Shown: piece after piece, positions 7,369 through 50,458 of the stretch
Position numbering within the stretch: position 1 is the stretch's first letter
Layout of the letters: every line of letters starts with the position of its first letter
Assembly (NCBI RefSeq): GCF_004010195.1
Contig: NC_057759.1
Location: 4,400,665-4,464,664 of the forward strand
Direction of reading: 5' to 3'
DNA length: 64,000 nucleotides
Origin: Chiloscyllium plagiosum
Taxonomy: Eukaryota
Program-made: the position numbers and the translations under genes
The notes under the pieces: model-generated
Told to the model about the DNA's origin: nothing
Database searches by the model: none
Seen by the model: only the letters and a program-made list of their open reading frames with translations

Positions 7369-7544
7369 TTTTGGATTAGTGGTGCTGGAAGAGCACAGCA
7401 GTTCAGGCAGCATCCGAAGAGCAGCAAAATCGACGTTTCGGGCAAAAGCCCTTCATCAGGAATAAAGGCAGAGAGCCTGAAGCGTGGAGAGATAAGCTAG
7501 AGGAGGGTGGAGGGTGGAGGGTGGGAAAAAGTAGCATGGAGTAC
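7369..7544 (-). mobile_element. PLE 3' end (family 1) with 7-bp direct repeat AAACAGA
   Basis: AAACAGA at 7362-7368 and 7545-7551. The empty site is seen in the paralogous sequence at ~15325-15345. Confidence 0.8.
7428..7463 (-). ncRNA. Minimal type I hammerhead ribozyme motif (PLE family 1)
   Basis: Minus strand: ATTC CTGATGA A GGGC TTTT GCCC GAAA CG TC GATT. Confidence 0.75.
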
Positions 7545-7904
7545 AAACAGAAGCCAAACAATGAATTCCCATCAGTGTTTAGGGGATTGCAAACCCCAAG
7601 AATGTCCCACAGCAGCTTCTTCCCGCTCTGCCTCCCTCAGCAGGCCCACACACAGCCCGAGAAAGGCCTCTCTCTTCCCCCCCAGCCCGCTCACTCCAAA
7701 TTCCGGGACAAGTTCCTGCTCCGCTCGGCCTCTTACAAACAGCCCCCGGTTCTCCCTGAACTCACCCCGAATCAATCCCGGTCTCGGAGCCCCCTCTGTG
7801 TCCCAGGCTCCCATCCCGATGTGCTGCTGGAAGGAGCCTGCTGTTCCCTCGCTTCCCTGGGCGCTGATCTCTCCATTGCGGTCTGTTTCAAACAAACCTC
7901 TTGC

Positions 7905-8021
7905 ACTCACTGAGTAAATGCTCCTCAATGACAGCGCTGAGGGAGGGCCTCACGCATGCGCTCCTCTCGTCAGGAACGGTCAGCATTGGGGGTGGGGAAA
8001 GGGGCAGCTTTGCGCATGCGC
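7905..8021 (-). promoter_or_regulatory. GC-rich promoter-like region with two NRF1-type motifs and a candidate first-exon donor
   Basis: TGCGCATGCGC 8011-8021 and CGCATGCGC 7953-7961; GTGAGT on the minus strand at 7910-7905. Confidence 0.5.
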
Positions 8022-8139
8022 TGCTTAAGGACACAGGAATAAATCATTCCCATTAAACCGACCGTGACAGCAGCAGTGCTAAGCCTAGGTCCAGTATGGG
8101 GGATTAGGATCAAAGCACAAATATTACTTCCAAAAGAGA

Positions 8140-9100
8140 AGGAGAGCCTAAATAAGCTTGGATTGTTTTCTCTCGAGCAGAGTTGACTGAATGGGGGCAC
8201 ATGATTGTGGCGTAAAAAATTATGAGGCGTATGGACAGGGTGAATAAAGAGAAGCTGTTTCCCTTGTTTGAGCGATCAATCACAAGTGGTGATTGGGTTA
8301 GGATATGGTAAGGATAAGGATTCTCACTATGATGGCGTGTAAGGGGTACAGATATAGTAAAACCTTTTTCACTGGTGGGAATCTAGAAGACACTGCCTGG
8401 GAAGGTAGTAAAGGTTAGAAATCTTAACCTTTAAAAGGTATTTGGATGAGCACTTCAAATGTCATAACAGTTAAGGATATGGGACAAGTACAGGAAATTA
8501 GCACACCTTGAGTGGTGGTTATTGTGGGTGAAGGGCTTTTTCTCTGTGTATCTCAGAGTGCAGTTATTAATCTGTACCTGTCAGTCTCTGGTTTATGACT
8601 GTGTAATTGTATTTATCAACCTACAACTTTCAGGTTGTAGAGTCATGCAACCTTTGATCCAACTAGTCCACTCTGACTAGAAATCCTAAACTGACCAAAT
8701 CTCATATGCCTTTAAATCCTTCCTGTTCATTTACTCAACCAGGTTACTTTTAAACATTGTAATTGTTCCCACCTTCATCACTTCCTCTGAAAGCTCATTC
8801 CACATGGACATCATCCTCTGCATGAAAGGTTGTCCCTTAGGTCAGTTTAAATTTTTGCCCTCTCACCTTAAACCTATGCCCTCTATACTCCCCACCCTAG
8901 GAAAAAAACTTTGGCTTCTCATCCAATCGATGCCCCTCATGATTTTATAAGCAGATATAAACAATACCCCTCAGCTTCTGATGCTCCAGGGAAAAAAGCC
9001 CCAGTGTATTGAGGTTCTCCGGATAGTTCAAACCCTCTAGTTCTGATAATATCGCTGCCAGTCTTTATGGCACTCTCTTAAGATTAACAACATCCTTCCT
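8140..9100. mobile_element. Two old CR1-like 3' fragments (+ ~8140-8550, - ~8640-9100) separated by 1-2 minisatellite units
   Basis: Degenerate CR1 3' motifs (ttgttttctctcgagcag; aaggttgtcccttaggtc...ctcaccttaaacctatgccctcta). Confidence 0.65.
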
Positions 9101-9390
9101 AATGCGCAGCGTCCCAGAATCAAAACTGAACAATGTAACATCCTAAACGGGTCAATGAAATCCAAATACTACAATATGCCACATTCGTGTCTGGGTAGAG
9201 TTACAAGTCGCGAAGCGAACTAATTAGATGGAGATCAATAAACTCTCCGTATATGATACCTTCCCCATTCACAGGTCTGCGCTCTCGTAAACCATGACAT
9301 CATTGTGTATTTGAGTTATTCAGATCAATTAATATCTAAGGTCGGTCTGCGCTCGGCGCCGGGCTCAGTTCTTTCCTGAGAGATGTGGGT

Positions 9391-9406
9391 GACTCTGATG
9401 AGAGCC
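9391..9406 (-). terminator. Mutated histone 3' stem-loop of H1, with HDE
   Basis: Minus strand CCCAAA-GGCTCTCATCAGAGTC-ACCCA versus canonical GGCTCTTTTCAGAGCC; purine-rich AAAGAACTG downstream. Confidence 0.85.
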
Positions 9407-9442
9407 TTTGGGTTCAGATGGTTATATGTTACAGCGACTGGT

Positions 9443-10088: not shown

Positions 10089-10095
10089 TGTGTTT
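10089..10095 (-). promoter_or_regulatory. H1 box (AAACACA)
   Basis: AAACACA on the minus strand about 150 nt upstream of the H1 ATG. Confidence 0.65.
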
Positions 10096-11329: not shown

Positions 11330-14300
11330 TCGCTGTTATTTGCTGAATTTGGATCTGTTTGCAGCCTTCATGTCTTTCACTATATTTCTTCCCAAATTGT
11401 AGACCTTTTCTTTGCACCAAAAACTGTCTTGAATACCTGTTTCAAGTTTCACAAAATCCTTTATGTAGGAGAGAGACAAGAATTGCACATAATATTCCAA
11501 AAGTGGCATAACCAATGTTCTGTACACCCACAACATGTTCTCCTAAGTCACATATTCAATGCTCTGACCAGTAAAGGAAAACCTATCAAATGCCTTCTTT
11601 GCTATCCTATCTAACCATAACTCAATTTTCAAGGAACAGTGAACCTGCATTACAAGGTCTCTTTGTTCAGCAATACTTCAAAGGACCTTAATATTAAGTG
11701 TGGAAGTCCTGCCCTGATTTGCCTTTCCAAATTGCAGCACCTCATATTGATTCAAATTGAACTCAATATGCCACTCCTGGGTCTAATGGCCCATCTGATC
11801 GAGAACCTGCTATATTCTGAGGTAGCCTTCTTTGCTGTCCACTACACCTCCAATTTTTGTGTAATCTGCAAACTGAGGAACAATACTTGCAACCTTACAT
11901 CCAAACCACTCATAATAATGTGGAGGTGCAGGTGTTGGACTGGGATGTGCATAGTGAAAAATGACAGAACAGCAAGATATACTCCAACAGATTTATTTGG
12001 AAGTATAAGCTTTCTGAATATAGACACCTGATGGAGGAACAGCACTCCGAAAGCTTGTACTTCCAAATAAACCCGTTGGACTATAACCTGGTCTTGTGTC
12101 ATTTTTTAATCTAAAATCATTTCTATAAATGATGAAAAGCAGTGGACCCAGCAGTGATCCTTGTAGCACATCACTTGTCACAGGCCTCCAGTCTGAAAAG
12201 CATCCTTCCACCACCACCTTCTACCTTCTAACAAATTCTGTATACAGATGGCTAGTTTTCCTTGTATTCCATGTGATCTAATCTTGCTAACCAAATTCCC
12301 ATGGGGAACCTTGTCAAACACCTTACTGAAGGCCATACAGATCACATCCACCACTTTGTCCTCATCAGTCCTCTTCCTTACCAATTCAAAAAAACTCAGT
12401 CGAGTTAGTGATACATGATTTCTCATGCAGAAAGCCATGTTGACTACCCCTAATCAATCCTGGCCTTTCAAGATGATGTAAATCCTGTCTCTCAGAATCC
12501 CCTCAACCGTTTGCCTACTGCCAATGTTATGCTCACTGTTTAATACTTCCCTGGCTTTTCCTTACCACCTTTCTTAAATAGTGGTACCATGTTAGCCAGC
12601 CTCCAGGCTTTTTGCACTTCACCTGTGATTATCGATGAAACAAATATCTCAGCAAGGGGCATAAAAATCACATCCCTAGCCTTGACACCATGTTCCAGGG
12701 TACACCTGATCACTATGCTTGTGCTTTATCCATCTTTTCTGTTTAAAAACATCCAGCAGCACCTGCTCTGTATTATGGACATTTTTCAAGATGTCACCAT
12801 CTGTTCCCCACATTCTATATCTTCCATTTCCTTCTTCTCAGCAAGCACTTGTGTAGTATCTCCCACATTTCTTGTTGTTCCACACAGAGTCTGCCTTGTT
12901 AATCTTTGCTGGGCCCTACTCTTTCTCTGGTTACCCTTTTGACCTTTATGTATTTATAAAATCTATTTGAATTCTCCTTAATGCTATTTGCCAAAGCTAT
13001 GTTATGTCCCTTGTTTGCGCTCCCGATTTCCTTCTTATGTATATCCCTACTGTATTTCTACTCTTTGGAGGATTCACTCAACCTCTGCTGTATTTAACTA
13101 ACATATGCTTCCTTCTTATTTGGACCAAAAGCTCAACTTCTTTTCTCATGCAGCACTTCCTACACCTACCAGCCTTTCACCCTTACAGGAACATACTGTC
13201 TCTGGGCCCTCGTTTTCTCAGTTTTGAAGGCTTCCCATTTTTCAGCCATCTCTTTGCGTGTGAACATCTGCCCTCAGTCAACTTTTGAACGTTCTTGCAT
13301 AATACTATCAAAATTGGCCTTCCTCCAAATTCGAAATTTAACTTTTCGATCTGGTCCATCCTTTTCCATCACAGTTTTAAAACTAATAAAAATTATGGTC
13401 GCTGGCCCCAAAGTGCTTCCCCACTGTCACATCATTATATCCCAAGAGTAGGTCAAGTTTTGTACCTTGTCTAGAAGGTACAGTCACATACTGAATCGGA
13501 AAATTTTCTTGCACACACTTAAGATATTGCTCTCTGTCTAAGCCATTAACAATATGGCAGCCCTAATCTATGTTAAAATCCCTCACCATAACCATACCAT
13601 TATTCCTGCAGATCTAAGATCTGCTGACAAATTTGTTTCTCAATTTCCTGCTGACTGTTGGGGCATCTACAGTCCAATTTCAATAAAGTAATCAAACACT
13701 TTCTTATTTTTCAGTTCCACCCAAATTATTTCCATGGATATAAGCCCAGGAATATCACTCCCCATTTTCTCTTGCTGACCCCTCCCCCCATCCTTCCTAT
13801 AACAATTGATTCCTGGAACATTAAGCTGCCAGTTGTGTCATCCCCAAACCATGTCTCTGTAATTGCTATGATATCTGAATTCCAATCCCATTTTCTTAAC
13901 CATGTCCTGAGTTCATCCTCCTTCCCTGTTAGGCCTCTTGCATTGAAATAAATGCAGTTTAAGTTATCAATCCAACCTCATTCTCTGCTATGTTCCTGTC
14001 TGCCCTGGGAATTTGACTTACTGACTACCAGCTTCAGATTGATATCTTTGTTCACTATCTCCCTGGTTTCCACTGACTTCCCTCCACCCCCAGTTTAACC
14101 CCTCCCCAGCTGCTCAAGGAAATGTCCCTACCAGTATATTAGATCCCTTCCAATTCAGGTGCAATGCTTCTTTTTTATACCAGTCATTTCTTCCCCAGAA
14201 GAGATTCCAATGATCCAAAAACTGGAACACCTCTCCCCTGCACCAGTTCCTGAGTTGGGCATTCCTCTGCTCTATCATCCTATTCCTTCACTCAATCACT

Positions 14301-19119: not shown

Positions 19120-19313
19120 GGTGAAAGTGGGTACTGCAGATGCTGAAGATTAGAGTGGTGCTGGAAAAGCACAGCAGGTCAGGCAGTATCCGAGGAGCAG
19201 GAAAATCGACGTTTCGGACATTCCTGATGAAAGGCTTTTGCCCGAAAAGTCGATTTTCCTGCTCCTCGGATGCTGCCTGACCTGCTGTGCTTTACCAACA
19301 CGACTCTAATCTC
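19120..19313. mobile_element. Foldback PLE-end insertion (family 1) with 13-bp TSD
   Basis: GCTCAAATTTTAA at 19107-19119 and 19314-19326; inverted arms either side of a decayed hammerhead core at 19220-19255. Confidence 0.85.
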
Positions 19314-23783: not shown

Positions 23784-24104
<321 letters not shown>

Positions 24105-24869: not shown

Positions 24870-26290
24870 TCGAAGACGTAAAAGCCCATGGACACAGGGT
24901 AATGTGTTGAATTTGATCCTAAGTTGGCTAGTCACAGGAAAGAAAAGATGGTGGCCATTGTGAATGGAAAGTTGTTTCAAGTGATGCTCTGCATGGCTCA
25001 GTGTTGGGACCTCTGCTGTTTATTTTATACATTAATGATTTGGAGTTGAATATGGTGGGCATGACCCTGTCGTGGATAGTGTGGAGGATAGCTGTAAGCT
25101 CCTAAACTATATAGATGGTTTGGTGGAGTGGGCAGATGGAGTTCAACTTTGATAAGTATGAGGGAATGCATTTTGGGAAGTCAGACAATAAATGGAAATA
25201 GACAATAAATGGGAATGCTGCCTGAACTGCTGTGCTCTTCCAGCACCACTAATCCAGAATAAATGGGAATATACTGAGAGGGGCAGGTGAAGTGAGAGAT
25301 CTTAGTGTGCAAATGCACAGGACCCGAAAGATAGATGGGGTTGTAAAGAAGGCACATGGAATGCTCTCCCTCATTGGCAGAGGGGTGAATACAAAAATAG
25401 GGAAATAACAATGAAACGATATGAGGCAGTGGTGGCTACAAGAGGAGTATTGTGTGTAGTTGGGTCACCATATTATAGGAAGGACGTCATTGCTGTGGAG
25501 AGAGTGCAGAGGAGATTTACAAGAATGTTGCCAAAATTGTAGCTATCAGGAGAGATTGGAGAGGTTGGGGTTGTATTCCTAGGAACAGAGGTGCCATGAT
25601 TAAGGAATACAGGGCAATCCCATATTCGCGGGTCTGATTATCGCAGTTTACCGTGGTCCGAGTATATAAAAGGGAGTGTTCCAGAACCAGGGAACAGGAG
25701 GCTGATGGGAAGGCATATTTCCCATTTAAATTAATGGTTTTGCACCTATCTGTGGTTTTGCGTTTCCGCTGCAGGTCCTGGAACATGTCTCCCACAGGTA
25801 CGGGGGGTCTACAGTACTAAATGCTGAGCTACCCGATGAAGGAGCAGCACTCTGAAAGCTTGCACTTCCAAATAAACCTATTGAATTATAACCTGATGTT
25901 GTATGATTTTTAACTAACTCGTGAGAGGGAGACATTAGACAGGAGGAACCTGTTTACTTTGGCAGAGAGTTCAAAAACCAGGGATCACTGATTCAAGCTC
26001 AGTGGTTGTAGGATTAGATGAAATGAGGAAAAATGTTTTTTTTTTATGTAGAGAGTGGTGGGTATCTGGAATTCACTGCCTAATTTGGTGGTGCAGGCAG
26101 AGACCTTACTTTTTTAAATACAAAATTCCCTGGAACTGCACCTCAAGTGTTGTAAACTGCAAGGTTACTGACTGTGGAAGGAAAGTGGGATGAGAAAGGG
26201 CACCTGGGTATGTTGGCATTGGCATGGACAAGATGGGCTGAATGCTGCCCCACCCCCCACTGATGCTGCATTATTTTTATGATTCTCTAG
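24870..26290 (+). mobile_element. Old CR1 RT/3' fragment with nested insertions
   Basis: ggctcagtgttgggacctctgctgttt; tggagagagtgcagaggagatttacaagaatgttgcc. A 41-bp PLE tail at 25217-25257 is flanked by AATAAATGGGAAT. Confidence 0.75.
25610..25814. mobile_element. Tigger/pogo-like MITE (Tc1/mariner), degenerate
   Basis: Flanked by TA; ends cagggcaatcccatattcgcggg and cccacaggtacggggggtctacag resemble Tigger-type TIRs. Confidence 0.5.
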
Positions 26291-26974: not shown

Positions 26975-28110
26975 AACATGGAACGATACAGCACAGGAAT
27001 GGGTCCTTCAGCCCACAATGTTGTGCTGAACATGACGCCGAATGAAATTTAATTCCTTCTGCCTGCCCATGGTCCATATCCCTCCATTTCTTGCACGTTA
27101 ATTTGCTTATTTTAAAATCCCTTCAATACCTTTATCATAACTGTCTCCATCACCACCCCTGACAGTGCGTTCCACTCTTACCACTCTCTACGTTAAAAGA
27201 AACTGCACCTTAGGTCTCCTTTGAACTTTCCCCATCTCACCTTATATGCATGCCTCTTAGTTTTAGACATTTCAACTCTTGGAAAAAGATTCTGACCATC
27301 AACCTTAAGCATGCATTTCATAATGTTATAGACTTCTGGATGTAGGTTTGCTCACTGAGATGGAAGGTTTGCTTTTAGACGTTTTGTTGGTAACATCATC
27401 AGTGAGCCTCCGAATGAAGCACTGGTGGTATGGCCTGCTTTTTGTTTGTATGTTTAGGTTTCCTTGGGTTGGTGATGTCATTTCCTGTGGTGGTGTAGTT
27501 TCCTGTGGTGATGTCATTTAGTGTTCATTTTCTTTGGGGTGGTAAATGGGTTGTAAGTCAACCTGTTCATTGATGGAATTCCGGTTGGAATACCATGCTT
27601 CTAGGAGTTCTATTTCATGTCTCAGTTTGACTTGTCCGAGGATGGATGTGTTGTCCCAGTCGAAGTGGTGTCCTTCCTCATCTGTATGTAAGGATACTAG
27701 TGAGAGTGGGTCATGTCTTTTTGTGGCTAGTTGATGTTCATGTATCCTGGTGGCTAGTTTCTGCCTGTTTGTCCAATGTCGTGGACACATAAATAGAAAG
27801 TGGGCCATACCACCAGTGCTCCATCTGGAGGCTCACTAATAATGGTAGTGAGGTGACAAAACATCTGAAACTGTACCTTCCAGCTCAGCGAGAAAACCTA
27901 GATCCAGAACCTCAACCTGAGCTACAACTCTTCTCAAACTTTTATAGACTTCTATGAAGTCTGCCCTCAGTCTCTGCTGCTCAGAAGAAAACTACCCAGG
28001 TTTTTCTAGCTTCTCTTTATAGCTCATACCTGCCAGACAACATCCTGGCAAACTTCTTCTGCACCCTCTTTAAATCCTCCACGTCCTTCCTGTAATGTGC
28101 CGACCACAAT
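26975..28110 (-). mobile_element. CR1 3' fragment hosting a PLE insertion
   Basis: CR1 tail aacatggaacgatacagcacagga...ccttcagcccacaatgttgtgc; resumes after 27942. Confidence 0.75.
27338..27941. mobile_element. Foldback PLE (family 3, Poseidon-like GIY-YIG) with 12-bp TSD
   Basis: TTATAGACTTCT at 27326-27337 and 27942-27953; minus arm encodes LATRIHEHQLATKRHDPLSLVSLH...FDWDNTSILGQ; short plus arm ~27785-27940. Confidence 0.85.
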
Positions 28111-28111
28111 T

Positions 28112-28848: not shown

Positions 28849-30799
28849 TTTAGTAAGGATACTTTTAACGTTACAATCGAGGTGAACAAATAGACGATGC
28901 TGTTATTTTGAGCAACCATATGTGAGGTAGATAGTGAGCACATTGAAGGAAACATTTCAGCTATCAGTAACTGAGAAGGATAGAATTAATCTTTTGTCAC
29001 AATACTCTAAGTATGGCCCAAGGAAAGTCAAACAATAAGGCAAGTGCGCCATACGCCACCTTCTAGATACCACCCAATCTACTTGCATGGCCACTTTCAG
29101 GGAGCTATAGACTTGAACCCCAAAGATCCTTCTGTACGTCAATGTTGTTCAGAGTCCAGCCATTAACTGTATACCTTTCCTGAACATTTGATCTTCCAAA
29201 GTCCAGCATCTTACACCTTACCGAATTAAACTCAATCTGTCATTTCTCCACCCATATCTGTAAGTGATCTATATTCTGCTGTATTCTTTGACAAACTTCT
29301 ACACTACCCACAAGTCCACCAATCTTTATATTGTCTGCATTTAGTAATGATAATTTTAATGTTACAATCAAGGTGAACAAACAGCTGATGTGATTACTTT
29401 GAACAACCAAATGTAAAGTAGATATTGAGTACAAATTGAATTGAAGGAAATATTTCAGCTATTAGTAACTGTAAAGGACAATTAATCTTTTGTCACATAC
29501 ATAGACACAGCAATCAAATAATATGAATTTCAAATGCACAAACTGTGTCAAAGCTTTACATAGAATGATTAATGTGTAGGTATGTAACCAAACGTTTCCC
29601 CACACCCCCCTCCCCAACACACACACACACACTGTCTCTCTCTCTCGCTCGCTCTCTCTGACTTACGATGAGTTTCAAACACATACACCATCCTGACACA
29701 CATTACAATGTCTAACAGCCATGCAGTTACATTGACATTGCAAGTAACACAAAATGTTACGTTCAAAATGATTTCTACCCACAGATCCTTTGTCAGAGGC
29801 CTATAGCACAGAATCAGGCTGTTTGAAACTTTTGAGTCTGCACTGATCAGAAACAACCAGCTAACAATTTTCATCCTGATCAGCCAGCATCCATTTGCAT
29901 AAATGGATCATGGTAGCAGAGGAGCTTATCATCCTCATCTTTCTCACAACATCATTCTGCATTTCTTTCATATTGCAGTAGAAGACTTTGTTTTGTCTGT
30001 TTCAGTCCCACCAGAAATCTTTTTTTTAGATAATCATGTACTTCTTTCAAAATTGTTGCAATTTTCTACAAAGAGATCTACATTCCTCCTCCCCCTCCCT
30101 GGGATGTATCACAAAAAAAGCGTGAAATCTGGCTGCAATTTTCACAATATATCAGTGGAATCTAATAACCACTCTTCAAAGCAGTGGAGAAAAGGGGGAA
30201 AAAAAGCCAAAATTGGTAGGTTTGTGGAATTGCACATTTTATCTTCAGAATTGATGTCAAACTGTCCTTTCCATATAGGCACTGACAATGAGTGGATGAA
30301 GTTCACATTCCCAACAATTACTGCAGAACTGATGCATAAGAGAATGTCCCAGTAGAGACAAAATGAGCTGAATTGTCTGCTTCTGCACGGTACCATATCA
30401 GTGATTCTAATTTTGGTGAGAAAGGTGATGACATGCTGTTGTGTTGCATATTGATATAAAAATATCATACAAAAATGGACTGACATGCAGAATAAAACTC
30501 ACTTTCACAAACAAAAACACCAACAATGTCTGGGTACAAATTAAAACCAAATGTCTCAGTGATACCACAGATCCCAAACAAGAAATGTGTGACCATAATT
30601 CAGAATGGTTCTCAGAATAAAGCAATTTCCCTTCTGCCATCACCTTATCTCCTCTCTCCCCCACCCACCCGCACAGACTGACAGTCAACTCAGAAATCAC
30701 AAAATGCAGAAAAGATTAAGATCCAGTCTCAACACCCTAATAACAACTATCACAGAATGTATTGCACAGACACAGAATCATGCTAGCGTCCACTTTAAT

Positions 30800-31410: not shown

Positions 31411-31965
31411 GTTATATAAATGATTAGGAGTTGGGTGTTGAGAATATAATCTCTAAATTGCAGTTGATACTAACCCAGAGAGAAGAGTGAATTGTGAAGA
31501 TGATGCTGAGTGACTTCACAGGAAGATTGACAAGTTTATCAAATGGGCAGAAATCTGGCAGATGAAGTCCAATGCAGAGAAATGTGAGGTAATGCATTTT
31601 GCTAACAGAAACACACGGCAACAATGCAGGGTCAATGGTATGTCTTTGAAGGGAGCACTGGAGCAGAGGGACCTCTGGGTTCACATGTATCATTCTCTGA
31701 AGTTGGCCAGGCAAGCTGAAACCTTTGTGAAGAAGGCTGATAGGATCCTTGCCATTATAAATAGAGGCATTGAGTGTAAAGCTGAGGAAATGATACTCCA
31801 CCTCCACAAATCATTGGTCAGACTACATTGGTGTTCAGTTCTAGGCAGTTTATTTCAGAAACCTTAAGCTCTGGAGAGGGTTCATTGAAGATTTCCTAGA
31901 ATGATAGCAGGAATGGAGGATTTTACATACAAGGAAGGATTAGTGATATCAGGCTCCTTCTCCTT

Positions 31966-32359
31966 CTTCCGACTGGGAACCCTCCAACCACAGGGGATGA
32001 ACTTGGACTTCACCAGTTTCTTCATCCCCCCTCCCCCCACCTTGTCTCAGCCGAATCCCTCCAGCCCGGCACCGCCTTCCTGACCTGCAGTCTTCTTCTT
32101 GACCTCTCCGCCTCCACCCTACTCCGACCTATCACCCTCACCTTGACCTCTTTCCACCTATCACATTCCCAACTCCCCTCCTCCAAGTCCCTCCTCCCTA
32201 CCTTTTATCTTCTCCTGCTGAACACTCTCTGCTCATTCCTGAAGAAGGGCCTGTGCCCGAAACGTCGAATCTCCTGTTCCCTGGATGCTGCCTGACCTGC
32301 TGTGCTGTTCCAGCAATAAAGTTTCAGCTTTGATCTCCAGCGTCTGCAGACCTCACTTT
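31966..32359 (+). mobile_element. PLE family 1 3' end with 12-bp TSD
   Basis: FRLGTLQPQGMNLDF plus a pyrimidine-rich tail; CTCCTTCTCCTT at 31954-31965 and 32360-32371. Confidence 0.85.
32235..32270 (+). ncRNA. Minimal type I hammerhead ribozyme motif, best-preserved copy
   Basis: ATTC CTGAAGA A GGGC CTGT GCCC GAAA CG TC GAAT; helix I AUUC/GAAU, helix II GGGC/GCCC, predicted cleavage after GUC at 32266. Confidence 0.8.
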
Positions 32360-35300
32360 CTCCTTCTCCTTGGAGCAGAGAAGATTAAGAACATTATGGA
32401 GGGGTTCAAAATTATGAATAATTTTGACAGGGGAAAGACAAATATTTTGTTCCCATTACTTGGTATGTCAGGAACTAGGGGTCACAATTTCAAGATTGTC
32501 AGCAAGAGAGCCAGGAGTGAGAGGAGGAGAAATATCTTTACTCAGAGTTGTTAGGATTTGGATTGTGCAGCCTGAGATCATGGTGGAGGTATGCTTCCAT
32601 ATGAGGTATGAAAAGAGAGCTGGATATGTACTAGAAGTGATGAAATTAGAGGGCAATGAAGATTGGGCTGGAAAACAATCCTGCCTTGAATTATTTCCAG
32701 CTCACCACAGTTTAAACAAAGCATGGAGAGTACAATTTAACCAAAGTATGGAGAGTACATTCATTTCATTGGATCATCTGCCTGGATTCATAAGCCAGGA
32801 GATGAAATGGATGTCCAAGTTAGGAATGATCAGCATAAAATCTCAAATCTCAGCCACCAACAGTTAGATTGTGCTACAGTAGGAATAGACTGACACACTG
32901 AGGGTTGTGGAAGAGACAATTATGCAGATGGTTTCTCAAGACAAGTCCATCTTTGGAACTGACATCTTGCTGACTGAATTGAAACAGAGCCTCGCCTAGT
33001 CGCAGAAACGTGATATTGCTTTACCTTCTCTTCCTTGTCCTCCTTATTTGCTGGAAGGTAGGACTGCTATTGATCGATTTGTGAAGCTTTCTTTTACGCT
33101 GTCTCACGATGTCTGTGGAAGGTTGACATAAATTTTTCCCTCTTCATCTTGACCTGGTTCCTCATCCCCTCCTGTATCTGTGTACCTCAGAGTGGTGTAT
33201 GTGATGCAGGGTGGTTGCTGCTCTGCTTGTTCAGCCTGAAAACAGGACAACACAGAAAAATAGTAGATAGGAGTAGGACCAAAATTGGTGGCATTTTGGA
33301 CACAGGAAGGTTATCTAAGAGTACAATGGAAATTTAATCCACTGGGCCAGTGCATCAAGGAATGACAGATGAAGTTTAATTTAGATAAATGTGAGGTGTT
33401 GCATTTTTTAAGGCAAACCAGGGCAGCACTTATACTGTTAACAGTACAAGTCTGGGGAGTGTTTCTGAACAAACAGACCAAGGGGTGCAGAAAGACATTT
33501 CCTTGAATGTGGTGTCACAGCTAGACATTTGCCATGCTTACCTTCACTGTTCAGAGCACTGACGGCAGGAGTTGGGGCGTCATGTTACAGCTGTACAGGA
33601 CGTTGGTGAGGCCACTTTTAGAATACTGTCTACAGTTCTGGTCAAACGTCTGTGGAAAGGATGTTCTCGAGTTGGAAAGGGTACAGAAAAGATTTACAAA
33701 GATGTTACCACGACTGTAGATTTGAGTTATAAGAAGAAGCTGCATAATCTGGGAACTTTTCTCCTAGTTTTCGGAGGCTGAGGGTTGACCTGAGAGATTA
33801 TAAAATCACGAGGGGCATAGATAAGGTAAACAGCTATGGTCTTTTCCCCAGGATAGGGGTGTCCAAAACTAGTGGGCATAGGTTTAAGGTGAGAGGGGAA
33901 AGATTAAAAAGGGATCTAAGAGGCAAATTTATCACACAGAGGGCAGAGTATATGGAATGAGCTGCCAGAGGAAGTGGTAGAGGCAGGTACAATTACGACA
34001 TTTCAAAGACCTTTGGAAAGGTACATGGATAAGAAAAGTTTAGAGCAATATGGGCCGAATGCAGACAAATGGGACTAGTTGAGTTTGGGAATCCTGTTAA
34101 GCTTGGGCAAGTTGGGCCAAAGGGCCTGTTCCCCTGCTGTATGACTCTAAATTTGGACGAGAATAATAAACTTTGCCTGAAAGACAGAGTGTACAGGAGG
34201 AGCTGTGAATATTTGGGGTCATTATCCAAACCAATTTCTCTTGACAAAGCATGTGATTTCAACACGCCGAAAACTGACCCTGACAAACGTTATTTCTCTG
34301 TACTCTGTGCAGGATGTGGCCATCTCTGCCAAGGTGGGAAGTGGATGCAATTCCGAAATGTCCTTGAACCAATCAACTTGATCAGCCAGAAGAAGGTGAG
34401 GAATTTGGAAAGAATTAGGAGTCACGTGCAGAGCAGACTGGATGAGGAGGGCATATTTCATTCCCCTAAGGACCATCACAGACAGGAACAGGAGAAGGCT
34501 ATTTGGCCTCTCCATCCTGCTCAGCCATTCAATTGCATCGTGACTAATGCATCATTTCTCACGCTCACTTTCCTGCACTTAACATGTAACCCTCAATTCC
34601 CCGCCTGATCAAGAATCTACCTACCCCAGCTTTAAACCTTGTTATAGAAAGAATGTTATTAAACTGGAAAGAGTGCAGAAGAAATTTACAATGATGCTGC
34701 CAGGACTCAGCGGTTTGAGTTACATGTAGACAAACTAGGACTTCACTCTTTAGAGCATAGGAGACTGAGGGGGGATTTTTAACTAACTGTATAAGATCAT
34801 GAGAGGAACAGATTTGGTGAATGCACTCAGTCTTTTTCCCAAGGTGGGGGAATGGAGGATCAGAGGGCATCAGTTTAATGTTAGAGCGGAAAAAATAAAA
34901 GGGAACTGGAGGAGCAATGTTTTTACACAGAGGGTGGTATGCACATGGAATGAGTTGCTAGCGGAAGTGGTTGAGGAAGATTCATTAGCAATATTTAAAA
35001 TACATGGATAAATACATGGATAGATAATGATTAGAAGGATATAGGCCAATTACAAGGAAATGGGATTGGATGAACATTTTTGTTGGCATTGAAGAGTTTG
35101 GACTAAAGGGCCTGTCTCTGTGCTGTAGAACTCCATGACATCTACGTTCATCTCCTTGTCAATTACTGGCACGGTACTTGAATCATGTATTGTGAATACT
35201 AACACAAAATACCTGTTCAATGCCTCGGCTAATTCCTCATATCTCAATGTGAAATCCCCCTTCTTATCCTCTAAAAGACCAATGTTTACCTTAGCCATTC

Positions 35301-35499
35301 TTCTGCACATTATATATTTAAATAAATATTTGCTGTTTTTTATATTCTGAGCTACTTTAATCTCTTAATCTATCTTACTTTCTTTAAAGTTTTTTTGTGC
35401 CTTTCTGTTGGAGCTTCCCACTCGTCTTTGCTACTTTGTGTGCCTTCTCTTGTAACTTCAGAGCCTCAATTGCTTCCTGAGACACCCATGACAGATTAA

Positions 35500-37542
35500 G
35501 TTAAAAATCACACAACATCAGGTTATACTCCAACAGGTTTAATTGGAAGCACTAACTTTTGGAGCATCGCTCCTTCATCAGGTGGTAGTGGAGGGCTCAA
35601 TCCTAACACACAGAATTTATAGCAAAAATTTACAGTGTGATGTAACTGAAATTATACATTGAAAAATTGATTGTCTGTTAAGCCTTTAATCTGTTAGAAT
35701 ATCATGATAGTTTCACTTCTTTCATGTGTAAATCACAAAACCTTTTTTTAAAAAGTTGCATTCTCAGGTTAGCTGTTAACAATGGTGATAGCTAGACAAT
35801 ACGTTGAAGGTGTTCGCCCCTGTGTTGTCTGTCTATGCCATGACGTTTAGATTGATTCTAATCTAAAAAGTGAGATAATGGAGTTATACATAAATTCATG
35901 CAGTTTTTGAGCTCAGAGTTCTACATGAATGCATGCAGTTTTGGAGAAAAAGTACAATGTAACCCTGCAAGTACAAATTCACCCCACAAAATATATGTGT
36001 GCATGTGGGTCTTTGTCTGTCTGTACGTATGTGTCTGTCTGGGTTGGGGTTGTGAGTATGAGAAAGCATGTGTGTGTGTGTGTAGTGAGTGCAGCATGTC
36101 TTAAGTCTGTGAGGGGTTGCATGTGGGAGTGTCTGTGTGCGCGTCTGTGTATATGTGTGTCCATGTGTATGTATGTATAGGAGTGCCTGTGTGTGCTTGA
36201 GAGTGTGTATAGTGCAATGGTGGTCACCTGTAATGTGACATGAACCCAAGGTCCCAGTTGAGGCCCTCCCTATGGGTACCGAACTTAGCTATCAGCCTCT
36301 GCTCGGACACTTTTTGCTGCTGCCTGTCCCGAAGCCTGCCTTGGAGGATGGTCACCCGAAGGTCCGAGGTCAAATGTCCTGGACCACAGAAGTGTTCCCC
36401 AACTGGGAGGGAACACTCCTGTCTGTTGATTGATATGCGGTGCCCATTCATTCGTTGTCGTAGCCTTTGCTCGGTTTCCCCAATGTCCCATGCCTCCAGA
36501 CATCCTTGTTTGCAACGTATAAGATAGACAACATTGGCTGAGTCACATGAGTACCTGCCACATACAAGGTGGGAGGTGTCCCCACTCGTAATGGTGGTAT
36601 CCATGTCCACACTCTGACATGTCTTGCAGTGCCTACTGTGACAGGGTTGTATGGAGTTGTCCTGAGAGCCGGGCAGCTTGCTACGAACAGCGATTTGTTT
36701 GAGGTTTGACGGTTATTTAAAAGCAAGTAGTGGAGGTGTGGAGAAGATCTTGGTGAGGTGCTCATCCTCATTGATAATGTGTTGCAGGTCACAAAGAACA
36801 TGGCGTAGTTTTCACCTCCTGGGAAATACTGAACAGGGTACCCTTCAGTTGCAGCACGTGTTTATCTCTTGAGGAGGTCATTACAGTTCCTTGCTGTGGC
36901 ACATTGGAACTGGCGGTCGATGAGTTAGGCATCCTTCCCCGTTCTTGTGAGGGCATCTCTGAGTACTTCCAGGTGTCCGTCATATTCCTCCTCATCTGAG
37001 CAGATCCAGTGCACGCATAGGTCTTGTCCATCGGGGATGGCTGTTTTAATATGTTTTGGGTGGAATCTGGAGAAGTGTAGCATTGTGAGATTGTCTGTGG
37101 GTTTGCGGTAGAGTGTGGTGATGAGGTGTCCATCCTTGATGGAGATGCATGTGTCCAAGAATGAGACAGATAGTCAAGAGTAGTCCATGGTGAGTTTGAC
37201 GGTGGGATGAAACTTGTTGATGTCACTGTTTAGTTTTATCAGTGACTCCTCGCCATGGTCCAGAGGAAGAAAATGTCATCAATGTACCTGGTATATAATG
37301 TTGGTTGGAGATCTTGCACAGAGGAGAAGTCTTGTTCGAACCTGTGCACCAAAATGTTGGCATATTGGGGTGCAAATTTGGTCCCCATGGCTATTCCATG
37401 TGTCTGGATGAAGAACTGGTTGTCAAAGGTGAAGACGTTGTGATCAAGGATAAAGCGGATGATTTGTAGGATGGTGTTTTGAGATTGGCAGTTGCTGGTG
37501 TTGAGTACTGATACTCAATGTGATGATTTGGCATCTCCAAAT
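35500..37542 (-). mobile_element. 5'-truncated PLE family 2 (Neptune-like): RT C-half, Zn-knuckle, GIY-YIG and 3' repeat; 13-bp TSD
   Basis: GIAMGTKFAPQYANI, RYIDDIF, LYRKPTD, PCHSRHCKTC, NVVYLIRCKQGC...IGETEQRLRQRMNGHR; CATGACAGATTAA at 35487-35499 and 37543-37555. Confidence 0.92.
35550..35584 (-). ncRNA. Hammerhead motif of PLE family 2 (GAAA mutated to AAAA)
   Basis: Minus strand CAC CTGATGA A GGAGC GAT GCTCC AAAA GT TA GTG. The GAAAGC form is seen in sister copies at ~12050 and ~25854. Confidence 0.6.
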
Positions 37543-40038
37543 CATGACAGATTAACCTCATTTTCAGTGGTGTATACTTTTGTGGAGCACCTTGGAAAAT
37601 TGCTTTGAAAGTCCTTCACTGTTTGGCAATTGTCCCACCATAAAGTCTGCTTCCAGTCTACTTTAGCTAACTCCTCCCTCATCCTATTGTGGTCTCCTTT
37701 GTTTGAGCACAGGACTCTGGTATTGGGTTTTCATCTTCTTTCTTTCCATCTGTATTCTAAATTCAACCATACTGTGATCACTCCTTCCAAGAGGATCCGT
37801 AACTATGACATCTTTAATTAATCCCGTCTTCTTACAACGGACCAGATCCAGAGTAGTTTAGTCCCTCGTCAGTTCCATTACGTACTGTTCAAGAAAACTA
37901 TTGTGGATACATTCAATGAACTCCTCCTCAAGGCTCTATTCATCCACCCGGTTTCACCAATTGACATGTAGATTAAAGTCCCCTATGAAATTACCATACC
38001 ATTTTTAGAGGCATTAGTTATTCCTATGTTCATTGCCATCCCCAATGTGATGTTATTATTTGTTGCCGTGTAGGCTATGCCACACAGTGACTTATTTTTC
38101 TTTGCGTTTCTATTTTCCACTCAAACGGATTAAACCTTATTCTTCATGGAACCTATATCACCATAGCTCTAATATCATTCATAAATATCAGAGTTACACC
38201 ACCTCCCTTCTCTTTCTGTCTGTCCTTCCAAACAGTCTGATACCCTCTGGATATTTAACTCCCAGACGTGACCATCTTGTGATCCTGTTTCCATAATAGC
38301 TACTAAATCATACTCATTCACAATGAACTCAACTACCTCGTTTTGAATGCCACGAGCATTCAGGTAAAGTGCCTTTATGCTAATTTTTTACACTTTTTGA
38401 ATTCTAATTTCCACTAATATCTCCTGACTTGTCCTTCCTTTTAACATCTTTCATAGTCTTGGATGTAGTTAAACCCTTCTGCACAAATGCTAATCTGCTG
38501 CTTTCTTTTCTATTTACCATGATATTTCCTGTCGTTTCTCTCCCCTCTGCCCCCAAAACCCTCCATCACTAAAGCCCCAGTGATCACCTCATTTCTCCTT
38601 TTCGCTAGAATACTGGTTCCAGATCAGTTCAGGTGGAGACCGTCCCAAGAGATCCCTCCTGTTCCAAAACTGATACCAATGCCCCTTGAAATGGAGCCCC
38701 TCGTTCCCATACCACTCTTTTAGGAACGTGTTTAATTCCCTAATTTTCTTTTACCTAAACCAATTTGCACATGGCTTGAGTAGTAATCTGGAGATTATAA
38801 CCCTTGAGGACCTGTTCCTTAATTTTGTTCCCCGTGCTTAATAATCCTCAAACAGGTCCTCCTTCCTATCCTTGCCTATGATGTTTATACCAACGTGTAC
38901 CAGAATAACTGGATCCTTGTCCTCCCACTTAAATATCCTTTCAAGAAGGCCAGAGATGTTCGTCACCCAAGCATGGGGCAGGCAATACACCCTGCAGGAC
39001 TCTCGATCTTGCTTCCAAAGATGCTGTCAATACTCCCAGTTAAAGAATCCCCTACAACTACTTTTTGCTCTCCCCTCTTGAATGACCTCCAGGAAAGTGG
39101 TTATTAAAAATACAGATCAGACTGAAGAGCTTTGAATTGAGGCACTGCTTGTGCACAATCAACTGCAGTAGGCAGATTGCATCAACTGCACGTCTGACAC
39201 AGGACTTCCAAAGCAAGCATCCTCATGGAAAAAGATTTCCAGGTTGGCAGATAAATGTGTTCAGTATGACTCCACATTTTCTCTTAAAAACAAAAATGGA
39301 ATGCCCACAATCACTTGGGGGAAACTTTGGCCAAATACCATGCAATTTGGCAAAGAAGTATCATTGAAGAAGTCAACAATTTTGAGTATCTGAAGTATCC
39401 CCAAATGGAAAACAAGGGTTATCATTGGAAGAAGCATGTGAAAATGTACCCATCACACCCACACTTGCTTCAGCAAATATCATCTGCCCCACATGGGCAG
39501 TACTTGCGGATTCAGCATTAAATGATTCAATAATCTCAGGACGCATAGAAAAAGAATTCTCCTTGATGCATAGTCACTGCTCAAGAAGAACAATATGGTT
39601 TTGTAAGTACAGGATAAACATTTCAAACATATTATTCTATATGGTCTGAATATACTTCCCAGTTCATATATATTAATCACTATATCCCACATATTCCCTA
39701 TTGTTTAATTTTGGACCGCTAATTCATCTGATGACCTCTTTGCTATTAGCCCAAATCTCCTTCCCTGAAGATGCTTCTGGTATTCACTGTCACAGTCACC
39801 TATTTTGCTGCTCCCCCAAAAGCTGTAACCCAGGTCTCTAAGTCCTTATAAAAACCGCCAAAAATACGGCCGGTGTAAATGAGAAACAAAAACAGGAATT
39901 GTTGGAAAAGCTGAACAAGTCTTGCAGCATCTGTGAAGAGAAAGCAGAGTTAACATTTCAGGACTCCTGTTCCCACCAGGTTCCGACCCACACTTTTCAT
40001 TCAAATCCCGGAGACAGGACACCAGTAGCTTCATGGGG

Positions 40039-40580
40039 ACTACAACTCCCACAATCCCTGTCGCTGCTGCTTATGTGACAGTTTCACGCTCTGAACCGAC
40101 AAAGCGTATACTACGCATGTGCGACATCGATTTGGGGGCAGGGACAGCTCCTTCTATGTCATTGGTCAGTTATCACAGCAGGCACTTTGTCTACTGGCAA
40201 AAGCATTCAAAAGTCAAAAGAGAAAATGCTGGAAAATCTCAGCAGGTCTGGCAGTATTTGTAAGGAGAGAAAAGAGCTGACGTTTCAAGTCTAACTGACC
40301 TTCAGTTAGACTTGAAATGTCAGCTCTTTTCTCTCCTTACAGATGCTGCCAGACCTGCTGAGATTTTCCAGCACTTTCTCTTTTGGTTTCTGATTCCAGC
40401 ATCCGCAGTTATTTGCTTGTAAGCAGCATTCAAAAGTCAGTTCGTCACGTCCGCTGCTGTCCTACGTGATTCCGTCTTCCATCCCAGCACCATCAAAAGC
40501 GGCAAAGTTACCAATGAAAAGCACGGGAAACAATCTGGACCTCCAGCCAATCAGAACGCCCTATTTGTCTGAGCGCGAAC
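40039..40580. promoter_or_regulatory. Orphan CpG-containing promoter-like region (ZNF143/Staf site, NRF1-like motif, CCAAT boxes)
   Basis: ACTACAACTCCCACAATCC 40039-40057; CGCATGTGCG 40114-40123; ATTGG 40161; CCAAT 40511 and 40547. Confidence 0.55.
40217..40424. mobile_element. Foldback PLE-end-like insertion (family 4) with 15-bp TSD
   Basis: AGCATTCAAAAGTCA at 40202-40216 and 40425-40439; ~80-bp near-perfect inverted arms centred at ~40300. Confidence 0.85.
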
Positions 40581-41884: not shown

Positions 41885-42082
41885 GAAAGTGAGGTCTGCA
41901 GATGCTGGAGATCAGAGCTGAAAATGTGTTGCCGGAAAAGCGCAGCAGGTCAGGCAGCATCCGGGAACAGGAGAATCAACGTTTCGGGCATAAGCCCTTC
42001 CTGAAGAAGGGCTTATGCCCGAAACATCGATTCTCCTGTTCCCTGGATACTGCCTGACCTGCTGCGCTTTTCCGGCAACACA
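41885..42082. mobile_element. Foldback PLE-end insertion (family 1) in CR1 ORF1, 14-bp direct repeat
   Basis: GAGAAAATAGGGGA at 41871-41884 and 42083-42096; ~75-bp inverted arms meeting at CTGAAGA (42001-42007). Confidence 0.85.
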
Positions 42083-47285: not shown

Positions 47286-48443
47286 TTCTTCTACCTTGAT
47301 CTTGTCATCTTCTACCTAGGAACTGTTGAAGAAAACTCTCGACACTCAGACCTTGAGAACTGATTAGTTTATTCCATGATAGATCATGGGGAATTCACCA
47401 TCCTAACTGTGGCTCGGTGCTATTCTGAAGTACATCAGGATACTACAGGATTATATAGAGAAAGCAGATAGAGGCTGATAATCGATTACACAGTTTGGTA
47501 TGCTTACAAGGTGGTACTAAATTAGAGGTTAGTCATTAGAGTCAAACCTAAGCACCATTATGCATTCCACAAGTATTTACACAGATTGCTAACACTAAGC
47601 AGAGATGCTCTCCACCACATCTCCTCCACTTCCTGCACCTCCGCCCTTGAACCCCGCCCCTCCAATTGCCACCAGGACAGAACCCCTCTGGTCCTCACCT
47701 TCCACCCCACCAACCTCCGGATACATCGTATCATCCTCCGTCATTTCTGCCACCTCCAAACAGACGCCACCACCAGGGATATACTTCCCTCCCCACCCCT
47801 ACCAGCGTTCCAGAGAGACAACTCCCTCCGCGACTCCCTTGTCAGGTCCACACCCCCCACCAACCCAACCTCCACTCCCGGCACTTTTCACTGCAACCGC
47901 AAGAAGTGCAAAACTTGCGCCCACACCTCCCTCCAAGTCCCCAATGGATCCTTCCATATCCGTCGCAAATTCACCTGCACCTCTACATACATCATTTACT
48001 GTATCCGCTGCACCCGATGTAGTCTCCTCCACATTGGGGAGACAGGCCGCCTACTTGTGGAACGTTTCAGGGAACACCTCTGGGACCCCTGCACCAACCA
48101 ACCCAAGCGCCAGTGGCTGAACACTTTAACTCCCCCTCCCACTCTGCCAAGGACATGCAGGTCCTCGGCCTCCTCCATCGCCAGATCCTGGCCACACGAC
48201 GCCTGGAGGAAGAGTGCCTCATCTTCTACCTAGGAACCCTCCAACCACACAGGATGAATGTAGATTTCTCCAGCTTCCTCATTTCCCCTCCCCCCCGCCT
48301 TATCTCAGCCCCAACCCCCGGATTCAGCACCGCCCTCTTGATTTGCAATCTTCTTCCCAACCTCTCCGCCCCCATCGCCTCTCCGGCCTATCACCCTCAC
48401 CCTCAACTCCTTCCACCTATCGTATTCCCAGCTCCCCTCCCCC

Positions 48444-48943
48444 NNNNNNNNNNNNNNNNNNNNNNNNNNNNNNNNNNNNNNNNNNNNNNNNNNNNNNNNN
48501 NNNNNNNNNNNNNNNNNNNNNNNNNNNNNNNNNNNNNNNNNNNNNNNNNNNNNNNNNNNNNNNNNNNNNNNNNNNNNNNNNNNNNNNNNNNNNNNNNNNN
48601 NNNNNNNNNNNNNNNNNNNNNNNNNNNNNNNNNNNNNNNNNNNNNNNNNNNNNNNNNNNNNNNNNNNNNNNNNNNNNNNNNNNNNNNNNNNNNNNNNNNN
48701 NNNNNNNNNNNNNNNNNNNNNNNNNNNNNNNNNNNNNNNNNNNNNNNNNNNNNNNNNNNNNNNNNNNNNNNNNNNNNNNNNNNNNNNNNNNNNNNNNNNN
48801 NNNNNNNNNNNNNNNNNNNNNNNNNNNNNNNNNNNNNNNNNNNNNNNNNNNNNNNNNNNNNNNNNNNNNNNNNNNNNNNNNNNNNNNNNNNNNNNNNNNN
48901 NNNNNNNNNNNNNNNNNNNNNNNNNNNNNNNNNNNNNNNNNNN
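48444..48943. other. Assembly gap (500 N)
   Basis: Run of N. Confidence 1.
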
Positions 48944-48957
48944 GGCACACCAGCCTC

Positions 48958-48993
48958 ATTCCTGATGAAGGGCTTATGTCCGAAACGTTGATT
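48958..48993 (+). ncRNA. Minimal hammerhead motif (PLE family 1)
   Basis: ATTC CTGATGA A GGGC TTAT GTCC GAAA CG TT GATT. Confidence 0.7.
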
Positions 48994-49798
48994 CTCCTGC
49001 TCCTCAGATGCTGCCTGGCCTGCTGCGCTTTTCCAGCAACACACTTTTCAACTCCTCCCTTGGGTGTTACCAACTTCTAGGTTTTTGGAAAGGAAAGGGA
49101 GTTTGGAAACGAAGCCATGTTGGTTTTCACTGGATGGATGATGATGGTGGAATTAAAGTGATAGGGACCTACCAGACGACAGCAAGAACTGTTACCAATA
49201 TCAGTGAATGGGAGGAGGTTGGATGCTCGGCAATTGAGTGGGAAAATGGTCAAGAGACGAGAAGTAGGTTCTCATGTACACGAGGAGCTCCCAAGGTTGG
49301 AGAGAAGCTGGAGGAAGTTGAGTATTCAGGACTCGGACAAGGTGAAACTTCAGAGACAATTTCAGGGAAAGGAGGGACATGGAAGAGACACCTGCTCAGA
49401 TTATCTCAATCTGAATGACAAAGAAGCTCCATGAGCTCCTTACAAGATGGAGGAGAGAGAAAGGGAACCTTTTCAAAAGAAAGTGCAAAGGACAGTAGAA
49501 AGTGTTAGCGAACTGGGTGTTTACCATAAATTTGATATAATTGACTTTTTATCCCATTATAAACACCTGTAACCAAGCTAGAATTTCCACAAGGTCAATT
49601 GAGAAATACTACAATGAAACAAATTGGATGCTGGATATGATTAACAGCAAATTCCAACTCCTTCAGTTATGGAAGTTACTCTGGCAGTTATATAGTTAAC
49701 TTAGTGTTGTAATGCATGCCCGGGATCATTTTACAGGGCTCCAGTAACAGATAATGATAGTTGTTGTGGTTCTGTTCGCCGAGCTGGAAGTTTTTGTT

Positions 49799-49838
49799 GC
49801 AAACGTTTCGTCCCCTGGCTAGGCGACATCATCAGTGC
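49799..49838 (-). ncRNA. Minimal hammerhead motif (PLE family 3)
   Basis: Minus strand GCA CTGATGA T GTCGCCT AGCC AGGGGAC GAAA CG TT TGC. Confidence 0.75.
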
Positions 49839-50418
49839 TTGGGAGCCTCCTGCGAAGCGCTTCTTTGATGTTTCCTCCGGTGTTTATAGTGGTCTGTCCC
49901 TGCCGCTTCCGGTTGTCAGTTTCAGCTGTCCGCTGTAGTGGTTGGTATGAATGCCATGCCTCTAGGAATTCCCTGGCTGTTCTCTGTTTGGCTTGCCCTA
50001 TGATAGTAATGTTGTCCCAGTAGTGTTGTCCCAGTAGTGTACAAAATACCATGCAAGGACTGCACTAATCACTATATAGGACAAACAGGAAGACAGCTAA
50101 CAATCTGCATACATGAACATCAACTAGCCACGAAACGACACGACCAGCTATCCTTAGTAGCCACACACACAGACAACAAGCAACATGAATTCGACTGGGA
50201 CAACACTACTATCATAGAGCAAGCCAGACAGAGAACAGCCAGGGAATTCCTAGAGGCATGGCATTCATCCACAAACTCCATCAACAAACACATCGACCTC
50301 GACCCAATATACCAACCACTACAGCGGACAGCTGAAACTGACAACCGGAAGCGGCAGGGACAGACCACTATAAACACCGGAGGAAACAACAAAGAAGCGC
50401 TTCGCAGGAGGCTCCCAA

Positions 50419-50458
50419 GCACTGATGATGTCGCCTAACCAGGGGACGAAACGTTTGC
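50419..50458 (+). ncRNA. Minimal hammerhead motif (PLE family 3)
   Basis: GCA CTGATGA T GTCGCCT AACC AGGGGAC GAAA CG TT TGC; helix I GCA/UGC. Confidence 0.75.

Follow-up and report, generated by a model that had tools for sequence, protein, structure and literature searches.

Hammerhead motifs in the window

The stretch of DNA analysed here, called the window below, is 64,000 nucleotides of the shark Chiloscyllium plagiosum (contig NC_057759.1, forward-strand positions 4,400,665 to 4,464,664). It contains broken copies of Penelope-like elements (PLEs) carrying short motifs of the hammerhead ribozyme type, and also histone genes. An earlier note on this DNA had named five core motifs, and all five were found in the sequence at 7428..7463 (-), 32235..32270 (+), 48958..48993 (+), 49799..49838 (-) and 50419..50458 (+). 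Each has the core CTGA(T/A)GA-N-stem II-GAAA-CG-TH and a short helix I, with an extra nucleotide placed after position 9 and before 10.1 and a G10.1-C11.1 pair in 5/5 intact copies. The predicted H17 nucleotides are 7432 (-), 32266 (+), 48989 (+, a U), 49802 (-) and 50455 (+), and the cuts previously predicted after 32266 and 50455 agree with these positions. Helix III is, as had been proposed, a palindrome only: ACGT in families A, C, C2 and D and AGCT in family B.

Core and stems are kept in five of the 19 motif arms tabulated. Three of the five are family A copies and the other two (49799 and 50419) are the arms of a single inverted insertion of family C, thus the five intact motifs represent two families and four insertion events. 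The seven decayed copies listed earlier were all present.

A pattern search for the core, the G10.1-C11.1 pair and the palindrome gave five matches, and 100 dinucleotide shuffles gave a mean of 0.00 and a maximum of 0. A descriptor adding helices I and II gave six matches at zero core mismatches, five of them palindromic; the sixth reads the decayed copy at 28163 out of register. In 1-kb block shuffles (n = 100) this descriptor found a palindromic match in 0/100 and any match in 2/100. Two results could be taken to favour chance matches to a short pattern. None of the 20 matches of the Rfam scan of the window (E up to 10) is to a hammerhead family, and ViennaRNA favoured the double-hammerhead fold in none of the five copies, its energy being 5 to 15 kcal/mol higher than that of the best fold of two strands, though these energies ignore the tertiary contacts of the hammerhead core. 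Given that 0/100 shuffles gave the pattern and that several unrelated PLE families have the motif in the same position, chance is a scarcely credible explanation. Rfam matches to microRNA families at 40260, 41955 and 11988 were below threshold, fall on palindromic stumps and were rejected.

Minimal hammerheads (min-HHR) were described in the pseudo-long terminal repeats (pLTRs) of metazoan PLEs by Cervera and De la Pena in 2014 (PMC4209133), and all the sequence features of PLE minimal type I hammerheads given in the accessible part of that paper are present in the window motifs. The likeness extends to the type I form, the palindrome as sole helix III, the extra nucleotide, the G10.1-C11.1 pair and the short helix I, to the occurrence of several families per genome, and to the predominance of single truncated copies with some opposite-strand pairs 100-700 bp apart. 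They differ in that stem II of window family A is 4 bp as against 7-8 bp in Schistosoma (PMC4209133). Judged by their sequence, the motifs are minimal type I hammerheads of PLEs in a shark, and hammerheads at the ends of broken PLE copies are an arrangement already described in 2014. No shark entry was found in the supplement text of PMC4209133, one file of which lay outside the search, and literature searches found no shark PLE hammerhead. Since PLE hammerheads are known in fish, coelacanth, frogs and reptiles, the gap that sharks close was an expected one.

PLE insertions that carry the motifs

Searches with relatives (tblastn) showed PLE coding remains on the same strand and 5' of the motifs in families A, B, C and C2. 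For family A these lie at 47595-48313 (+) and at 31964-32050 (+; to the relative P0013). The relic at 47595..48313 comprises the end of a reverse transcriptase (RT), a CX4CxxC linker and a frameshifted GIY-YIG endonuclease (EN), and is of Neptune type. A run of 500 N (48444-48943) separates it from the motif at 48958, whose core is intact and whose stem II includes one G-U, so the link between relic and motif is inferred from the gapless copy at 32235. That copy is a 5'-truncated insertion (31965..32363, +; tblastn and self-alignment) in which the end of the GIY-YIG open reading frame (ORF) is followed by a pyrimidine-rich spacer, the hammerhead and a long tail. The third intact family A core, at 7428, is part of an insertion of 176 bp (7369-7544), which has a target duplication of 7 bp.

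In the longest family B copy (35499..37484, -) RT and EN follow in order over 37484-36250: a broken RT at 37484-36982, a CX4CxxC linker, GIY-YIG to ~36250, a spacer and a decayed hammerhead at 35549-35585 (-) with G12 changed. A second copy (28109..28870, -; upstream boundary approximate) has the last ORF codons, spacer, a decayed hammerhead near 28159-28195 and a tail. The other two are decayed stumps, one palindromic at 11915..12106 (left boundary approximate; A9 changed) and one at 25827..25915 (+; U4 and C11.1 changed).

The family C insertion (49760..50533) is of Penelope/Poseidon type with an inverted 5' arm. The inverted arm carries the hammerhead at 49799..49838, and the forward arm carries GIY-YIG and a C-terminal tail (50034..50438, +; tblastn match 50034-50432), the hammerhead at 50419..50458 and a tail at 50459..50533 (+). 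The C2 insertion (27338..27939) also has an inverted arm, with a GIY-YIG relic at 27787-27536 (-; tblastn) and two decayed motifs. Palindromic stumps of family A lie at 19120..19313 (head to head; forward motif decayed, inverted arm without the 5' core) and 41885..42082 (no intact arm). A family A tail-only piece at 25215..25260 (+) is 98% identical to the tail at 7368-7413. The earlier list did not include the family D palindromic stump at 40217..40424, which has the family A tail motif and only the 3' half of the ribozyme recognisable, the family E tail-only piece at 39878..39960 (-), which starts at the GAAA box, the second C2 arm near 27850, or the inverted arms of the palindromes.

Self-alignment showed an inverted arm in six insertions in the window. 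Four of these have target duplications: 13 bp (19120), 14 bp (41885), 15 bp (40217) and 14 bp with one mismatch (27338). A comparison of flanks gave no clear target duplication for the family B palindrome and the C insertion. Penelope insertions with inverted pLTR, tail and target site duplication were described by Arkhipova et al. 2013 (PMC3846280) and Craig et al. 2021 (PMC8557442). As far as the accessible parts of these two papers go, the window insertions are alike in having an inverted 5'-truncated arm, a one-ended tail, target duplications and a pLTR with the first ORF codons, and they differ in that the duplications at the four sites are 13-15 bp rather than the 8-10 bp of rotifers and in that several are just ~200 bp, unlike rotifer Penelope insertions (PMC3846280, PMC8557442).

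The assignment of the motifs to the 3' ends of three PLE families thus stands in part. Families A, B and C all follow PLE remains and the motif does lie at the 3' end of the insertions, but intact motifs occur only in A and C, and in family C the motif repeats the start of the ORF, as described below.

Several of the copies are short and non-coding, and might instead be non-autonomous retrozymes that amplify via circular RNA. According to the accessible part of a preprint (10.64898/2026.07.22.740005), animal retrozymes of the non-LTR type carry type I hammerheads of PLE pseudo-LTR origin and are present in the sole chondrichthyan sampled, and the window copies share this hammerhead type and PLE origin. 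They differ from those retrozymes in that the window has no tandem arrays and its copies are joined to PLE ORF remains. Tandem units each with a hammerhead were not found, motif overlap with tandem repeats being 0/12 rows; the longer copies continue directly into PLE ORF remains; and the short ones vary in their 5' ends and have inverted arms, as truncated PLE insertions would. Retrozymes are therefore a very unlikely source of the motifs.

Relatives and classification

The shark PLE origin that had been proposed for the ribozymes is borne out by the same-strand coding remains 5' of three families and by the closest named proteins, which are from Chiloscyllium, Hemiscyllium, Rhincodon and Stegostoma. 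Of the relatives of the family C endonuclease, eight of ten carry shark protein names, as do 5/5 for the family A piece. The relatives P0003 and P0008 match RVT_1 and GIY-YIG, partly below Pfam cut-offs, and the Pfam scan of the PLE fragments in the window gave no match.

A CX2-5CxxC linker is present in the family A and B relics of the window and in 2/4 family A relatives, and is absent in the family C relatives P0001, P0002, P0003 and P0008; the EN start could not be placed in P0007, P0050 and P0166. The linker is a Neptune trait, Nematis also being linker-bearing, in the accessible part of PMC8557442. Since the linker occurs in A and B and not in C, families A and B appear to be of Neptune type, with Nematis as the alternative, and family C of Penelope/Poseidon type. 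Outside sharks, the family A pattern had 0 matches in viral contigs, the family C alignment against metagenomes gave 162 pattern matches of which 0 were confirmed, and the tail pattern had 0 matches in metagenomes.

Neptune-type GIY-YIG relics with no hammerhead following them occur at 1-439 (+), 18249-18511 (+) and 50635-50828 (-). The relic at 18249 is more distant, ~40% to P0011 and P0013, and may be a separate family. Two predicted shark host proteins, P0004 and P0006 (MAP3K7 and NT5DC1 isoforms), end in family C endonuclease sequence, which suggests exonized copies or annotation artefacts.

The family C motif as ORF start

In family C an ATG (50428-50430) is built from A9, the extra U and G10.1. 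The frame from this ATG aligns to two Clonorchis proteins just past their endonuclease (18/32 identical to P0023, pairwise E 3e-07). P0050, a full-length relative of 832 aa (48% identical to P0001 over 441 aa) obtained from a HMMER search with the endonuclease, begins with the peptide of the ribozyme frame; a word-indexed search with the 40-residue N-terminal frame gave no match. Given that the ribozyme frame is the N-terminus of P0050 and follows the endonuclease in Clonorchis, the 3' motif of family C is a copy of the ORF start, and the tail at 50459..50533 continues it. The Clonorchis sinensis proteins P0018 and P0023 share both the ribozyme-encoded N-terminal peptide (window 50425-50520) and 52-59% of the endonuclease, and for this reason horizontal transfer from flatworms was considered. 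Several top non-shark matches are named as flatworm proteins. On sequence likeness, either horizontal transfer or annotation bias is possible.

The tail has two discrete 3' ends, 50496/50497 and 50532/50533. The inverted arm of the insertion stops at the short end (equivalent 50497) and the forward arm at the long end (50533). The loose ends listed for reads and contigs on 50030-50570 include some behind 50496/50497 and 50532/50533 in RNA run X21 and behind 50533 in DNA contigs of X2 and X15, the flanks in both being mostly in low agreement. Because the two ends, ~36 nt apart, are discrete and their flanks mixed, we take them to be probable start sites of reverse transcription. Copies that retain the complete motif run through the cut site unbroken, so at this ribozyme their templates had not been cut or had been rejoined. 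The tail was also considered as a splice acceptor, and this was dropped because AG is absent from most family A arms.

The closest known system is PAc, the Poseidon element of Anolis carolinensis (Frangieh et al. 2024, PMC11167929). In the accessible part of that paper the PAc ribozyme likewise holds the start codon of the element; the cut falls 26 nt after the start in PAc and 27 nt in family C, and the long end lies 111-118 nt after the ATG as against ~105 nt. An optional 30-40 bp tail lies between two internal reverse-transcription starts in PAc (PMC11167929), and the 36 nt between the family C ends resemble it (PMC11167929, PMC8557442). With its two 3' ends and a start codon within the ribozyme, family C carries the anole model over to a Poseidon family of a shark.

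One feature of family C, an upstream ORF open into the ribozyme with its stop 8 nt past the next ATG, has no counterpart in the description of PAc as far as PMC11167929 was accessible. The endonuclease frame is open to a stop at 50436-50438, in stem II/loop II, and this stop and the next ATG are in different frames. The frame ends at this codon in both window arms. Among close shark proteins seven extend this far, and five of them end here too (P0001, P0003, P0005, P0006 and P0016; P0002 reads through and P0004 stops early). In the open stretch, 0/12 listed variants create an early stop. Family C may then be a Poseidon element without an untranslated region, with ORF stop and next start both within the hammerhead, a proposal that is made tentatively and is on balance doubtful. 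If true, in a tandem transcript the ribozyme would be a translation switch inside which ribosomes stop and restart, and a cut 27 nt past the AUG would strip off the start codon. Several results weigh against a function of the overlap. At this composition an open stretch of 41 codons has a chance probability of 0.29; the variants listed in it are 8 non-synonymous to 4 synonymous, as compared with 7 to 12 in the endonuclease; the C2 copy stops earlier; and among the 119 relatives scanned this ending is confined to the close shark proteins. The functional case is thus weak. No description of a stop/start overlap inside a hammerhead was found in the literature, Repbase and Dfam being outside the search. 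Family C offers a defined construct for the question of whether cleavage controls translation of the element.

Stems and predicted folding

Helices I and II vary between families and remain paired, which is the covariation that the earlier note had asked to be looked for; it was read by eye from few copies, without a formal statistic. The inner pairs of helix I are C-G/U-A in A, C-G/A-U in B and A-U/C-G in C, and the third pair is U-A or C-G within B, G-C in C1 and U-A in C2. In stem II of family C two segments of 3 bp are separated by a 1x1 mismatch and closed by a 4-nt loop. That stem II differs while pairing and core are retained is correct for the helices in general but not for family B, where 0/5 arms keep both; the full GGAGC/GCTCC stem is found only at 35550, where G12 is lost. 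Similarly, the complementary flanks expected to form helix I are fully paired (4 bp) in family A only at 32235, a U-U mismatch being present in 6/7 arms.

Stem II was predicted in all five bare motifs with a pair probability of at least 0.99. Predicted pairing of helix I was 0.8-0.9 in C and 0.5 at 32235, with hardly any at 7428 and 48958; at 7428 the helix was predicted to be unformed (pair probability at most 0.03). A transcript through the family C insertion is predicted to form a long hairpin that encloses both motifs (-547 kcal/mol, z -42). An apparent distal extension of helix I in the family C fold was rejected, the variants at 50467 and 50469 giving it no clear support.

Selection, decay and RNA reads

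Of the 40 variable sites listed for family C reads, the 40-nt ribozyme contains five: N7, H17, the mismatch of stem II and two sites of loop II, none of them core or paired. The probability of this is 2e-4 if 9/40 positions are free, a set partly drawn after seeing the data. Given that the variants listed in the ribozyme occur only at unpaired non-core sites and that helix I changes yet stays paired, the sequences point to a fold under selection in parent elements. The inserted copies are decaying. C>T or G>A at C11.1/G12 is seen in 8/14 non-intact arms (an ancestral C being assumed in D and E), and in family B 4/41 core letters and 46/300 tail letters differ from the window majority.

In RNA run X21, 578 reads drawn from ~2 in 100 of the run aligned to family C; only 7 of them reached 99% likeness, which makes the signal one of the family as a whole. 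Depth across the 50455 cut site was 160, 178 and 190, and there was no pile-up of ends at 50455 among the places listed. These uncut reads are weak evidence on cleavage. RNA run X22 had 0 reads aligned and gives no evidence on expression. H17 (50455) is C instead of U in ~7% of the X2 DNA contig depth and in 88/188 X21 RNA reads; given this difference, the copies that are expressed may represent another mixture of subfamilies, the samples themselves being different.

The absence of ends at the cut site in family C reads would also fit a fold that is retained at the start of the ORF as a signal for protein binding or translation and does not cleave in the cell. For the anole element, the accessible part of PMC11167929 reports that ribozyme mutants have no effect on insertion in vitro and that no RNA-seq reads start or end at the cut site. 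However, the catalytic letters and the palindrome are kept in all families despite their differing stems, and the anole motif cleaves once its protein is added (PMC11167929). We regard a non-cleaving signal as unlikely, if not negligibly so; it concerns the parent elements and leaves the reading of the dispersed copies unchanged.

Interpretation

The reading preferred here is that the motifs are hammerheads at the 3' ends of truncated PLE insertions of at least three families, and that the dispersed copies are most likely inactive and decaying, without host function (probability about 0.87). In the parent element the ribozyme would lie in the pseudo-LTR and, in family C, would by homology overlap the ORF start. 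By analogy with known min-HHR, two copies may pair via their ACGU or AGCU palindromes, and each would slowly cut the other, perhaps assisted by the protein of the element. Reverse transcriptase would probably start within the RNA, 42 or 78 nt past the cut site in family C, on a template uncut at that ribozyme. Such an internal start beyond the cut site would leave 3' ends carrying ribozyme and tail, truncation and 5' inversion would yield the stumps and palindromes, and the inserted copies would then erode, often at the CpG of C11.1 and G12.

Some points weigh against this reading. No full-length, two-pLTR or tandem element is present in the window. The argument for selection covers the variants listed, and its free positions are partly post hoc. 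RNA run X21 is a poly(A) single-cell library, which may miss cut ends, and covers family C alone. Finally, in family A 0/65 core letters differ as against 41/391 tail letters, a tally that left out C11.1, C15.2, G16.2 and H17 and is biased because the copies were chosen by their core and subfamily differences inflate the tail count. This could be constraint after insertion, counting against simple neutrality.

Histone genes and the question of host function

The window contains an H2B gene (~1145-1520, -), a histone H1 pseudogene (~9420-9940, -) whose globular domain is interrupted by an in-frame TGA and whose 3' stem-loop is degenerate (22.8 bits, cut-off 34), and a histone H4 gene (23784-24095, -) with an intact stem-loop. 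This H4 differs from what we take to be the standard sequence at two residues (position 15 Gly and position 30 Ser). It had been suggested that intact hammerheads could cut read-through transcripts near these genes. Dispersed copies would then serve the host, acting on read-through or intronic transcripts.

The best candidate is the motif at 7428 (-), the sole intact one sense-downstream of a histone gene. It lies ~1.9 kb beyond the H1 pseudogene stem-loop, its core is intact, and its orientation is that of both the pseudogene and a CpG-rich promoter-like region at 7690-8060 (-). With a possible splice donor near 7760, ~330 nt above it, the motif would be sense in a would-be first intron. Palindromes at 7952 and 8012 in the promoter-like region are presumably NRF1-like. 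The undiverged family A cores (0/65) also speak for this explanation. Against it, the H1 has an in-frame stop and a weak stem-loop, and the next same-strand arm below H4 (19215) lacks the 5' core. The stretch 7545-7681 has a 93% identical inverted paralog at 15201-15335, from which the 7428 insertion is missing.

Partners are a further difficulty. In the accessible part of PMC4209133, dimers cleave at a low level and the monomer not at all. The window holds no intact family A partner for 7428 on its strand, and its helix I is predicted to be unformed. The nearest intact motifs of one family on one strand, 32235 and 48958, have 16.7 kb between them. An A and a C motif lie closer together on one strand (48958 and 50419, 1.5 kb), but their helix I strands do not match and a mixed dimer would not form. 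In addition, both C motifs are predicted to be locked in the long hairpin and family C RNA has no ends at the cut site. The suggestion that intact copies cut read-through transcripts, whose sole candidate follows a pseudogene and has no partner nearby, is thus not borne out; a role of the motifs near histone genes has no support, and host function is very improbable.

Other features of the window

A large nested inverted duplication, 85-94% identical (51282-52264/55380-56626 and 52810-53774/54025-55036), carries decayed C2H2 zinc-finger exons. Matches to CTGAAGAG...GAAA at 53607 and 54168, inside this duplication, fail the stem tests and were rejected. N runs occur at 20049-20983, 48444-48943 and 56627-57126, and long ORFs across them are artefacts. 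Many LINE fragments are present in the window, with an RVT_1 match at 19744-21318. Satellite-like diverged repeats are common to several blocks (2677-5540, 17750-18180, 19480-19740, 21240-21530, 26350-26440 and 30940-31410), and a SINE-like family of ~300 bp has six copies, at 458-715, 18650-18932, 42382-42673, 55039-55340, 55991-56227 and 61878-62198.

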